Of a DNA stretch of 4,968 nucleotides, positions 1,901-4,968 are shown piece by piece. Position numbers and translations under genes: made by a program. The stretch's first letter is position 1, and each line of letters starts with the position of its first letter. Location: positions 1 to 4,968 of IMG/VR virus record IMGVR_UViG_2711768067_000002; one strand, given 5' to 3'. The notes under the pieces are model-generated. The model was not told where the DNA came from. It saw only the letters and a program-made list of their open reading frames with translations, and did no database searches. This stretch comes from a virus (Duplodnaviria > Heunggongvirae > Uroviricota > Caudoviricetes).

Positions 1901-1928
1901 GCAAAGAAAAACCGGCGCTGAGGCCGGG
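1901..1928 (-). terminator. Intrinsic terminator ending the cI-cassette transcript (tImm-like)
   Basis: Minus strand CCGGCCTCAGCGCCGG hairpin (plus 1912..1927) followed by TTTTTCTTTGCC (plus 1901..1910), immediately after the stop of the 206 aa ORF (1929..1931). Confidence 0.6.
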
Positions 1929-2549
1929 TTAATGCTGGGGAGTGATTTTTTTGTTGTCTGTTGGCTGGGTATTTTGTGGCGGCGCTTGCAAAGTGGAAGG
2001 CTGTTGCAAAGGTGCGTGGTCTGACTTTAAAGCTGATACCAGCCCGGGAATCGCAACTATTACAGCGATAATGACACTAAAAATGGCTAATCGTATAGAA
2101 ATACCCGACTGAACACCACTAATTGCGGTATTAACCCCTGTTATTTGTCCTTGAATTCCTTCGAATCTCCCATTAATTGCTTTTAAATCGCCAGCAGCGC
2201 TATCCATTTTTCCATCGATCTTGGACGATAGAGAGCTTATGGCCGCATTAAGTGATGCAAATTGGACATTAACGCTTTCACGAGATAGAGCCATGTCAGC
2301 CCTAATGGAAGAAGCAATAGACTCCATCTCTGCTTTATTAGCAGCTAAGCGAGCATCAAGTTCCTCTCTGCTGATCGTTCCCACTTCTTCCTCCGTTTGT
2401 GGCGGTTTTATGTAATTATTTTGCACCTTGGTGGGAGAATTATCAAATTCAGCCTCAAAATCGGAACCGCCAACAACCTTCAACCTCCGGCTTTCAGATA
2501 TGTTGGTGTCTTGCTTTCCATGATTATTTAAATTGCTGTCGTCACTCAT
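1929..2549 (-). CDS. Hypothetical 206 aa protein with a polar N-terminus, a predicted helical/coiled region, one C-terminal transmembrane helix and a Pro/Gln-rich tail; distal gene of the cassette in the rexB slot
   Basis: ATG at 2549..2547 overlaps the upstream ORF's TGA in an ATGA arrangement (translational coupling). Hydrophobic stretch RLAIFSVIIAVIVAIPGLVSAL near the C-terminus; small-residue-rich repeats (INGRFEGIQGQITGVNTAISGVQSGIS) precede it. No resemblance to RexB (144 aa, multi-pass) as recalled. Confidence 0.75.
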   Translation of the reverse strand: MSDDSNLNNHGKQDTNISESRRLKVVGGSDFEAEFDNSPTKVQNNYIKPPQTEEEVGTISREELDARLAANKAEMESIASSIRADMALSRESVNVQFASLNAAISSLSSKIDGKMDSAAGDLKAINGRFEGIQGQITGVNTAISGVQSGISIRLAIFSVIIAVIVAIPGLVSALKSDHAPLQQPSTLQAPPQNTQPTDNKKITPQH

Positions 2550-2980
2550 AATAGCTCTACGGTGAAAAATGATTCATTTTTATGAAGTTCATTTTTAGGG
2601 TCTTCATTATCTTGCAATCTCCCTATAACACTATACAGCCCTTTAGCTGGGACCCTAATTTCTTTCAATGTTACTATTACCTGTCCGCCAACCCCTGTTT
2701 CAAAATGGCTATCTTTCGTATCGATGAAAAGTGAAACTGATTCCGAAGAGCCGTCAGGGAATTGAATTTCCTCACCTTTTTTTATAATTAGGTGCGCGGG
2801 GATTACCATAATACCCAAATTATATCTTGAATTTGGTTTCAACCCGATCATACCAACCCTGAAATCAATTGATAGCCGCGCAGGAAATTCATTGCATGTA
2901 AAATTAAGCGTCGGTTGGTTGGGTTCTTCGCTGCTATCAAATGGGGTTATAAAAGATATTCTTTCTAAATTAAGTGCCAT
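2546..2980 (-). CDS. Hypothetical ~144 aa soluble protein; proximal gene of the cassette in the rexA slot
   Basis: Preferred start is ATG at 2980..2978 with AGGAG 5 nt upstream (minus strand AGGAGAATTTATG), giving MALNLERISFITPFDSS.... The ORF-track start (GTG 3034 / ATG 3031 overlapping the cI stop) lacks a convincing SD but is not excluded. No transmembrane segment, no recognisable catalytic motif, no resemblance to RexA (279 aa) as recalled. Confidence 0.7.
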   Translation of the reverse strand: MALNLERISFITPFDSSEEPNQPTLNFTCNEFPARLSIDFRVGMIGLKPNSRYNLGIMVIPAHLIIKKGEEIQFPDGSSESVSLFIDTKDSHFETGVGGQVIVTLKEIRVPAKGLYSVIGRLQDNEDPKNELHKNESFFTVELL

Positions 2981-3030
2981 AAATTCTCCTGCATCGCTGT
3001 ATGCTCTACGAGCATCTCGGCGACTTATCA

Positions 3031-3747
<717 letters not shown>

Positions 3748-3748
3748 T

Positions 3749-3820
3749 TAAATCTATCACCGCAAGGGATAAATATCTAACACCGTGCGTGTTGACTGTT
3801 TTACCTCTAGCGGTGATAAT
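3749..3820. promoter_or_regulatory. Right operator/promoter switch: oR3, oR2, oR1 with divergent pRM and pR
   Basis: oR3 tatcaccgcaagggata (3755..3771), oR2 taacaccgtgcgtgttg (3778..3794), oR1 tacctctagcggtgata (3802..3818). pR -35 TTGACT (3792..3797), 17 nt spacer, -10 GATAAT (3815..3820). pRM on the minus strand: -10 GATTTA (plus 3749..3754), -35 TAGATA (plus 3774..3779). Confidence 0.9.
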
Positions 3821-3835
3821 AATTGCATGTACTAA

Positions 3836-4045
<210 letters not shown>

Positions 4046-4052
4046 ATAACAC

Positions 4053-4084
4053 CGCTCTTACACATCACAGCCCTGAAAAAGGGC
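4053..4084 (+). promoter_or_regulatory. nutR: nutR site (boxA CGCTCTTAC plus boxB hairpin)
   Basis: cgctcttac at 4053..4061 and gccctgaaaaagggc at 4070..4084, immediately downstream of cro. Confidence 0.8.
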
Positions 4085-4160
4085 ATCAAATTAAACCACA
4101 CCTATGGTGTATGCATTTATTTGCATACATTCAATCAATTGTTATCTAAGGAAATACTTA
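4085..4160 (+). terminator. Probable Rho-dependent tR1 region between nutR and cII
   Basis: Assigned by position from established lambda organisation only. A Rho-dependent terminator has no obligatory hairpin, so the sequence cannot confirm it; a short inverted repeat gtatgc...gcatac is present. Confidence 0.35.
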
Positions 4161-4186
4161 CATATGGTTCGTGCAAACAAACGCAA
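4140..4186 (-). promoter_or_regulatory. pRE-like promoter with CII-binding TTGC-N6-TTGC direct repeat
   Basis: Minus strand TTGCGTTTGTTTGC (plus 4173..4186) overlaps the cII 5' codons, as in lambda pRE; a -10-like TAAGTA lies upstream of it on the plus axis. Confidence 0.6.
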
Positions 4187-4457
4187 CGAGGCTCTACGAA
4201 TCGAGAGTGCGTTGCTTAACAAAATCGCAATGCTTGGAACTGAGAAGACAGCGGAAGCTGTGGGAGTTGATAAGTCGCAGATCAGCAGGTGGAAGAGGGA
4301 TTGGATTCCAAAGTTCTCAATGCTGCTTGCTGTTCTTGAATGGGGTGTCGTTGACGACGACATGGCTCGATTGGCACGACAAGTTGCTTCGATTCTCACC
4401 AATAAAAAACGCCCGGCGGCAACCGAGCGTTCTGAACAAATCCAGATGGAATTCTGA
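4164..4457 (+). CDS. cII: Transcriptional activator CII (97 aa)
   Basis: MVRANKRNEALRIESALLNKIAMLGTEKTAEAVGVDKSQISRWKRDWIPKFSMLLAVLEWGVVDDDMARLARQVASILTNKKRPAATERSEQIQMEF, near-identical to lambda CII. The ORF-track entry starts further upstream; the real start is the ATG at 4164. Confidence 0.95.
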   Translation: MVRANKRNEALRIESALLNKIAMLGTEKTAEAVGVDKSQISRWKRDWIPKFSMLLAVLEWGVVDDDMARLARQVASILTNKKRPAATERSEQIQMEF

Positions 4458-4489
4458 GGTCATTACTGGATCAATCCACAGGAGTAATT

Positions 4490-4968
4490 ATGACAAATAC
4501 AGCAAAAATACTCAACTTCGGCAGAGGTAACTTTGCCGAACAGGAGCGTAATGTGGCAGATCTCGATGATGGTTACGCCAGACTATCAAATATGCTGCTT
4601 GAGGCTTATTCAGGCGCAGATCTGACCAAGCGACAGTTTAAAGTGCTGCTTGCCATTCTGCGTAAAACCTATGGGTGGAATAAACCAATGGACAGAATCA
4701 CCGATTCTCAACTTAGCGAGATTACAAAGTTACCTGTCAAACGGTGCAATGAAGCCAAGTTAGAACTCGTCAGAATGAATATTATCAAGCAGCAAGGCGG
4801 CATGTTTGGACCAAATAAAAACATCTCAGAATGGTGTATCCCTCAAAACGAGGGAAAATCCCCTAAAACGAGGGATAAAACATCCCTCAAATTGGGGGAT
4901 TGCTATCCCTCAAAACAGGGGGACACAAAAGACACTATTACAAAAGAAAAAAGAAAAGATTATTCGTC
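4490..4968 (+). CDS. O: Replication initiator O, N-terminal part (truncated by window end)
   Basis: ATG at 4490 with GGAG upstream; translation MTNTAKILNFGRGNFAEQERNVADLDDGYARLSNMLLEAYSGADLTKRQFKVLLAILRKTYGWNKPMDRITDSQLSEITKLPVKRCNEAKLELVRMNIIKQQGGMFGPNKNISEWCIPQNEGKSPKTRDK... matches lambda O; open to the window edge. Confidence 0.9.
   Translation, partial: MTNTAKILNFGRGNFAEQERNVADLDDGYARLSNMLLEAYSGADLTKRQFKVLLAILRKTYGWNKPMDRITDSQLSEITKLPVKRCNEAKLELVRMNIIKQQGGMFGPNKNISEWCIPQNEGKSPKTRDKTSLKLGDCYPSKQGDTKDTITKEKRKDYS
4838..4923. repeat. ori iterons: four ~18-19 bp O-protein binding repeats inside the O reading frame
   Basis: Four tandem copies of ATCCCTCAAAACGAGGGA-type repeats with internal dyad symmetry (approx. 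4838..4856, 4859..4876, 4882..4899, 4905..4923), followed by an A/T-rich stretch (4925 onward) cut by the window end. Confidence 0.85.

Follow-up and report, generated by a model that had tools for sequence, protein, structure and literature searches.

What has taken the place of rexA and rexB in this lambda-type immunity region, and what might it do for a lysogen? The window, meaning the whole stretch of 4,968 bp analysed here, is a lambda-immunity region with 97-98% identity to lambda over ral, N, cI, cro, cII and the start of O. The Ral, N, CI, Cro and CII open reading frames are all recognisable in it, and no Rfam family was matched anywhere in the window. When the window is compared with lambda by blastn, positions 3030-4968 match at 97.5% and positions 1589-1931 at 88%. 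Two stretches have no lambda counterpart: positions 676-1177, which stand in place of sieB, and positions 1932-3029, which stand in place of rexA, rexB and the cI-rexA spacer. At the second of these, lambda homology picks up exactly at the cI stop (3030) and again from 1931 downward, where the stop codon and terminator are common to rexB and to ORF206, the gene at the centre of this report. Judged from this alignment, the rexA-rexB segment is cleanly exchanged for two genes, ORF162 and ORF206, between the cI stop and a retained tIMM. The features that define the exchange are these:

1912..1927, minus strand: tIMM-like intrinsic terminator, CCGGCCTCAGCGCCGG followed by a T-run (terminator scan, fold, and the Timm annotation in EF120458)

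1929..2549, minus strand: ORF206, a predicted tail-anchored coiled-coil inner-membrane protein of 206 aa (sequence, PHROG 5820)

1932..3029, no strand assigned: the swapped segment (blastn of the window against lambda)

2546..2980, minus strand: the partner gene, 144 aa, listed as ORF162 from a GTG at 3034, with its probable true start at the ATG at 2980 (sequence)

3031..3744, minus strand: the lambda cI repressor gene, with S24 peptidase and HTH domains, which opens the operon and has pRM/OR just upstream (lambda similarity, domains)

The two genes that replace rexAB are tightly joined. The stop codon of ORF162 overlaps the start codon of ORF206 in an ATGA at 2546-2549, so that ORF206 does not stand alone but is the second gene of a two-gene cassette, translationally coupled through this ATGA to the upstream partner. 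In nine other loci the gap between the partner and the ORF206 homologue runs from -23 to +22 nt. In lambda, cI, rexA and rexB form one transcription unit that runs from pRM/pRE to tIMM; as the cassette occupies the same slot, its genes would be co-transcribed with cI from pRM and made in lysogens together with CI. In lambdoid prophages, few positions are expressed more strongly in a lysogen than the cI-to-tIMM slot, which houses RexAB, the founding abortive-infection system. The terminator starts one base past the ORF206 stop (TAA, 1929-1931), folds at -10 kcal/mol (z -2.2), is nearly identical to the hairpin behind lambda rexB, and is annotated Timm in the GenBank record of phage HK542 (EF120458). 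As for the partner itself, no TM or signal peptide was found in ORF162, its AlphaFold2 model is all-beta and jelly-roll-like at low confidence, and its profile returns only noise from the PDB (estrogen receptor, E>0.19).

ORF206 is a genuine gene and not a chance ORF, since it has homologues at 35-70% identity, with conserved synteny, in at least ten enterobacterial genera. The first-pass annotation had drawn its product as a polar and disordered N-terminus, a helical region with small-residue repeats, exactly one hydrophobic helix and a Pro/Gln-rich tail, all in a tail-anchored topology. The reading frame, its quoted sequence and this layout were all borne out. The protein can be divided into a variable, disordered head (residues 1-58), a [ST][RK]EE[LI] motif (60-64), a helical stalk (61-152), a TM (153/154-174) and a P/Q-rich tail of 32 aa (175-206). 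AlphaFold2, run with a 19-sequence alignment, gives no regular structure for residues 1-35 (pLDDT <50), one long helix at 61-139, another helix at 150-174 and disorder over 175-206. The model as a whole is of low confidence (pLDDT 57.6), which is to be expected when an oligomeric coiled coil is modelled as a monomer. A 19-residue Kyte-Doolittle scan has one peak only, of 2.71, at residues 154-174/156-174, and no other 19-residue window exceeds 1.6.

The stalk and the tail each carry a family signature. The small-residue repeats of the first-pass annotation are at residues 104-152, which form seven Gly-containing heptads (ISSLSSK, IDGKMDS, AAGDLKA, INGRFEG, IQGQITG, VNTAISG and VQSGISI) that run without a break into the TM helix, with hydrophobic residues, mostly Ile or Val, at positions 1 and 5 and a recurrent Gly at position 3 or 7. 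Homologues vary by 7-residue insertions in this stretch, which indicates a coiled coil of variable length. Ile or Val at both core positions favours trimers (the GCN4-pII rule), so the a/d positions may form a parallel, probably trimeric, cytoplasmic coiled-coil stalk. A single TM near the C-terminus and the lack of a signal peptide are sequence features of the C-tail-anchored class, and orientation is a prediction. No signal-like N-terminus was found in ORF206 and some 150 polar residues precede its only TM, from which N-in/C-out insertion, with the C-terminal tail anchored in the inner membrane, would follow; the charges flanking the TM are nearly balanced, and the positive-inside rule is of little help. 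Across the family, P+Q content is 36% after the TM versus 7% in the N-terminal part. Most homologues have the motif 'QPIIIQVP' after the TM, which in the window allele is degenerate (QQPSTLQAPPQ).

How widely is such a pair found, and in what company? A word-indexed search returned 27 clusters, all from Enterobacterales, and an exhaustive profile search of 1.84 billion representatives yielded 270 at E<=1e-3, 100 of them also passing E<=1e-10. Representatives outside the range of 150-270 aa are rare, and of the 140 distant relatives checked about 110 show a lone hydrophobic segment at ~73% of their length with a tail of ~30 aa behind it. About 20 loci were read in their genomic context; without exception, the ORF directly upstream on the same strand is small (95-172 aa) and soluble. 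Homologues in the cI-adjacent slot of other prophages, which the first-pass annotation had proposed looking for, do exist: the pair stands directly behind a prophage repressor in about 11 genera or immunity types. In E. coli it follows repressors that are 100%, 98%, 62% and 23% identical to lambda CI, with the cassette itself identical. Cedecea, Yersinia, Pectobacterium, Salmonella, Enterobacter, K. oxytoca, Arsenophonus, Providencia and Rahnella have homologous pairs too, each after an unrelated repressor, the Providencia pair being in a prophage within an IncC plasmid. In Pantoea, in Xenorhabdus, at one Yersinia locus and in two relatives that are more distant, the pair instead has tail genes around it or at its side. 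In all, at least 11 enterobacterial genera harbour the two genes as a pair, most often right behind the repressor. Judging from these contexts, the pair is a self-contained moron cassette that favours the repressor operon strongly but not always.

Variants of the E. coli locus can be seen as well. In some prophages an extra DUF3024-domain gene lies between the repressor and ORF162/ORF206 (L003, L004 4623-4964), indicating that the repressor-proximal slot can stack cargo. ORF206 is disrupted, with the partner intact, by an IS1 inserted before the TM in two genomes (H38, H39), leaving a 127-aa product that lacks the TM (L024 1789-2898, E. coli EM18-18-42), and by a deletion in one genome, leaving an allele of 104 aa (L025 1501-1815, E. 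coli 2013C-3492). These disruptions are compatible with either a cost to the host or dispensability, and are too sparse to interpret.

Within the family, conserved and variable parts are sharply divided. Conservation extends over the core, which begins at the [ST][RK]EE[LI] motif and takes in the rest of the protein (normalised alignment scores of 0.39-0.98); hypervariability marks both the head (residues 1-58) and the partner. Partners fall into at least two families, plus singletons. A long type of ~141-172 aa occurs in E. coli, Cedecea, K. oxytoca, Rahnella, Xenorhabdus and one distant relative, and a short type of ~95-100 aa in Yersinia, Pantoea, probably Arsenophonus, Providencia and another relative. 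Comparison of the long (~144 aa) and short (~97 aa) types with hhalign gave no profile-profile relation (probability 0.1%), and the two are therefore treated as unrelated. Among the singletons are an Enterobacter zinc-ribbon protein and a Salmonella protein of 149 aa. The Enterobacter core is the closest to that of E. coli (0.67-0.69), yet its head and partner are unrelated, which points to a recombination joint near residue 58. The head motif hKVVGGxD...(F/Y)(D/E)N(D/S)P goes with a long-type partner in E. coli, Cedecea and Rahnella. In a Mantel test of head against partner, rho is 0.32 and 68 of 5,000 permutations reach the observed value (n=11, related sequences), versus 593 of 5,000 for partner against core. 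Head and partner appear to swap together, and their co-variation, statistically weak, is suggestive of a head that docks the partner.

The cassette has been on record for some time. It is 99.4% identical in nucleotide sequence to a segment at the same position in phages HK542 and HK244. Left of N, the window has an arrangement of ral and a 167-aa ORF and differs from HK542. The immunity-region ORFs of these phages were reportedly covered by Degnan et al. 2007, Mol Microbiol 64:232. Their immunity regions were deposited in 2007 as EF120458 (HK542) and EF120457 (HK244), where both cassette genes, HK542c104/c105 in HK542, are labelled 'hypothetical protein'. The first-pass annotation had missed both this 2007 sequencing and the upstream partner. 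The cassette is found in 51 of 5,426 complete E. coli genomes, at one copy per genome; 774 contigs carry the exact ORF206 sequence, in every case without a name for it. No annotated relative of ORF206 was found among 5.8 billion proteins, and the searchable literature yielded nothing on the function of the cassette, its accessions or its PHROG. In a passage of Owen et al. that cites Degnan et al. 2007, the cI-N interval is described as a hotspot of mosaic diversity, which carries rexAB in lambda and bstA in other prophages (PMC8585504). The cassette is thus already in GenBank; what is new here is a delineated, modular two-gene family and a weak link to DUF1640-type proteins.

Family databases give that link, and little else. 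ORF206 matches PHROG 5820 (E 2.7e-76), and PHROG 5893 was also matched; both are of unknown function. Pfam and NCBIfam had nothing significant for ORF206, for the partner or for the 167-aa neighbour, and PADLOC-DB v2 had no family for ORF206 or ORF162 at E<=1. In Pfam, ORF206 has sub-threshold coiled-coil matches only. These include Baculo_PEP_C, where the cutoff is 38 and ORF206 reaches 20.8 bits, and CCDC90-like (PF07798), at 12.4 bits and E 0.14 against a gathering threshold of 33.5, so that by gathering score ORF206 fails membership of PF07798. Among 72 relatives, 23 match Baculo_PEP_C, all through coiled coil and all sub-threshold, and 17 match CCDC90-like/DUF1640 at E<1e-3, the best at E 7.5e-8 and all below the Pfam gathering score. 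The Providencia homologue matches CCDC90-like across stalk and TM at 20.6 bits (E 4e-4). Against the PDB, the family profile matches a short tail-fibre coiled coil, 9cuy, over 67 columns (E 7.8e-4). It also matches 6H9L (E 0.013), with iSReEldAkL aligned to the repeated ATKEDIEAL. 6H9L is a prokaryotic member of the DUF1640/CCDC90-like family, to which MCUR1 and CCDC90B also belong; the prokaryotic DUF1640 proteins are not known to have a function. A tail-fibre, scaffold or other virion identity for ORF206 was considered and rejected: the tail-fibre, scaffold and baculovirus PEP matches are sub-threshold coiled-coil artefacts, and the protein has a TM anchor and lies in an immunity operon. Clear homology to a virion protein, which the first-pass annotation had said would count against a membrane effector, is thus not what these matches represent.

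The layout of ORF206 can also be compared with that of DUF1640/CCDC90-like proteins, which likewise have a head, a short polar motif, a coiled-coil stalk and a C-terminal TM, with their bulk on the cytoplasmic or matrix side; the Gly-containing heptads and P/Q tail are features of ORF206 that are not described for DUF1640. In DUF1640-type members the C-terminal stalk opens with a beta-layer motif, [aliphatic]-A-T-K-[polar]-[DE] (PMC4786415). At the equivalent place, 63 of 90 family members have [ST][RK]EE[LI], which in ORF206 reads SREEL and is similar to the beta-layer motif without being canonical; only 3 of 90 have the canonical ATK form. From such similarities, ORF206 may work like DUF1640-type tail-anchored coiled coils and may be their distant kin. 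A related arrangement can be seen in X. taiwanensis (L031 3501-4255), where the gene for a distant long-type partner overlaps by 4 nt the next one, whose 104-aa product is a tail-anchored coiled-coil protein and contains a literal ATKEDI, the DUF1640 beta-layer signature. The best Pfam match of this 104-aa protein is XhlA, sub-threshold at E 0.005, and the pair sits beside a RelE/HTH pair and antirepressor genes.

Set beside RexA/RexB, the cassette is alike in position and plan and unlike in its parts. Both occupy the slot after cI that ends at tIMM, both are expected to be expressed in lysogens, and both are two-gene units in which a soluble protein is followed by an inner-membrane protein. 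There is no sequence similarity, however, and PADLOC gives no RexAB match. RexB is about 144 aa long with four TM; in ORF206 a long coiled coil precedes the only TM, which is C-terminal, so the distinction from four-helix RexB drawn in the first-pass annotation holds. RexA is 279 aa long versus 144 aa for the partner. Also unlike lambda, a promoter scan detected no pLit-like internal promoter upstream of ORF206, with 3 matches in total versus 4.5 expected by chance. Mycobacteriophage Butters offers an analogy in gp30/gp31, a repressor-proximal, lysogen-expressed pair of a cytoplasmic and a membrane protein, of which gp31 is polytopic; the sequences are unrelated to ORF162/ORF206, and the likeness is one of analogy only.

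With these comparisons in hand, a role can be proposed. We consider it probable that ORF206 is the membrane subunit of a mobile two-gene moron cassette in the rexAB slot, as far as structure and operon are concerned; that the cassette also serves to exclude other phages makes the whole statement tentative, and we put it a little short of an even chance. The exclusion role of ORF162/ORF206 is a plausible candidate to which their position points, at a documented hotspot that houses rexAB in lambda and bstA elsewhere, through a precise swap in which pRM/cI and tIMM are kept, and to which the fast turnover of head and partner may be added. In this proposal the variable head would dock the variable partner, with the partner as the specificity or sensor subunit. 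A phage cue at the partner or head would alter assembly of the stalk and TM, and the altered assembly would compromise the membrane or block a membrane-associated step of infection. The module would in this way protect the lysogen with proteins that are unrelated to RexA and RexB but analogous to them in function, RexA being the cytoplasmic sensor and RexB the membrane component. The outcome could be either killing by membrane damage (Abi, as with RexB) or a block of a membrane step of infection (Sie). A membrane-perturbing abortive-infection effector, as the first-pass annotation had suggested, is possible, with no PADLOC match and nothing in the literature searched. Hotspot position is circumstantial, as lysogen-expressed morons also encode non-defence traits; ORF206 has no annotated relative, the pair is not always linked to a repressor (the tail-gene sites), and AlphaFold2 confidence is low for both proteins. 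A broader version of the proposal would see the ORF206 family and its interchangeable partners as a widespread and unrecognised modular anti-phage system of enterobacterial prophages. Here a constant, trimeric, tail-anchored 'executioner' (stalk, TM and P/Q tail) would be armed by swappable head-plus-partner sensor cartridges, making the system an independent, non-homologous solution to the sensor-plus-membrane-effector design of RexA/RexB. We think this larger picture unlikely.

Other roles must be weighed against phage exclusion through a sensed change in the stalk and TM. One of them differs from it in mechanism only and is a sub-case of defence: superinfection exclusion at the inner membrane, in which DNA translocation by an incoming phage would be blocked and the cell would survive, possibly through the conserved periplasmic P/Q tail. 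HK97 gp15, P22 SieA and T4 Imm block translocation of incoming phage DNA. The lysogen-operon position is consistent with such a protein, as are the alternative sites beside tail and tail-fibre genes, where Sie genes are typically carried as morons, and the short conserved motif predicted to be extracytoplasmic after the TM in many homologues. The sieB slot is exchanged in the same phage, so its exclusion repertoire is being shuffled. However, some 150 of the 206 residues of ORF206 and the whole of the partner are predicted to be cytoplasmic, leaving the 32-aa tail alone to face the phage, and it is in the window allele that the tail motif is degenerate. To our knowledge, the need for a soluble cytoplasmic partner is also atypical of Sie proteins, and we regard this mechanism as distinctly unlikely. 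A non-defence role in lysogenic conversion or housekeeping is a stronger contender, if still somewhat unlikely. ORF206 would then be a tail-anchored scaffold of the DUF1640/CCDC90-like or ElaB/YqjD-like kind that tethers the partner, and perhaps host factors, to the inner membrane and modulates host physiology, stress tolerance or prophage induction. The sole sequence similarities of ORF206 are to scaffold-type tail-anchored coiled coils, its [ST][RK]EE[LI], where the stalk begins, is reminiscent of the DUF1640 beta-layer motif, and in X. taiwanensis a distant long-type partner is paired with the ATKEDI-bearing protein. That a few genomes have ORF206 disrupted by IS1 or a deletion and yet keep the prophage can also be read this way. 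Yet all of these matches fall below the Pfam gathering score, ORF206 itself at E 0.14, and coiled coils give compositional matches; rapid turnover of head and partner and residence in a hotspot look more like an arms-race module.

A part in lysis, as a holin, antiholin, XhlA-like holin accessory or i-spanin, was also considered, and the holin-like and spanin-like possibilities of the first-pass annotation did not survive. A single TM with a coiled coil is superficially like XhlA or an i-spanin, and the distant X. taiwanensis protein has its sub-threshold XhlA match. For ORF206, no holin or spanin family was found in Pfam, PHROGs or NCBIfam, and none of ORF206 and its 72 relatives has a holin, spanin or XhlA (PF10779) match in Pfam. 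The gene lies in a repressor operon transcribed in lysogens and outside the late lysis cassette; a holin made constitutively from pRM would be expected to kill the cell. An Rz-like i-spanin identity was rejected on layout: i-spanins have the opposite one, an N-terminal TM and a periplasmic coiled coil, whereas the TM of ORF206 is C-terminal, and no lipoprotein partner accompanies it in the immunity operon. HK542, which carries the cassette, is moreover listed in a spanin census with separate, ordinary i-/o-spanins of the embedded type (PMC6139136). A lysis function is therefore very improbable, and of the earlier interpretation it is the membrane protein in the rex slot that stood.

What would follow from phage exclusion by the cassette? 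A rexAB-replacing cassette with a conserved membrane module and a swappable head and partner is a well-defined candidate for an exclusion system, and one that is easy to test, since phage HK542 can be obtained. For bacterial tail-anchored coiled coils of the DUF1640 type, it would also be a first point of entry to their function. If the cassette proves not to be defensive, the hotspot will have been shown to carry non-defence cargo. Its interest is moderate at this stage: it is a concrete defence candidate in a famous locus, with nothing yet to surprise specialists, who regard the slot as a hotspot.

Further exchanges can be seen in the same slot and nearby. Other lambda-immunity phages have rexAB between cI and tIMM, or an NYN-domain protein (ev099), or a 345-aa protein (mEp332). 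The ev099 gene (L020 1682-2539) is an uncharacterised candidate in the rexAB position, and so is the mEp332 gene (L019 2037-3074), whose product is annotated as membrane-associated ('T2SS GspM containing'). In the window, the pL/nutL/tIMM segment at 1589-1931 has only 88% identity to lambda versus ~97% elsewhere, and positions 1528-1588, around and upstream of the 5' end of N, are unaligned to lambda. This suggests that the recombination that brought in the cassette reached into the pL-proximal region, or that this region diverged later. The sieB slot is a second exclusion-gene slot exchanged in the same phage as the rexAB slot. At 676-1185, the place of sieB is taken by a plus-strand ORF (682-1185) of 167 aa (164 aa and hypothetical in RefSeq) that is convergent with N and overlaps its end by 8 nt. 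Its product belongs to PHROG 1244, of unknown function, and has a coiled-coil middle, a C-terminal CxxC...CxxC zinc ribbon and a weak PADLOC match to PDC-M53B (E 0.012).
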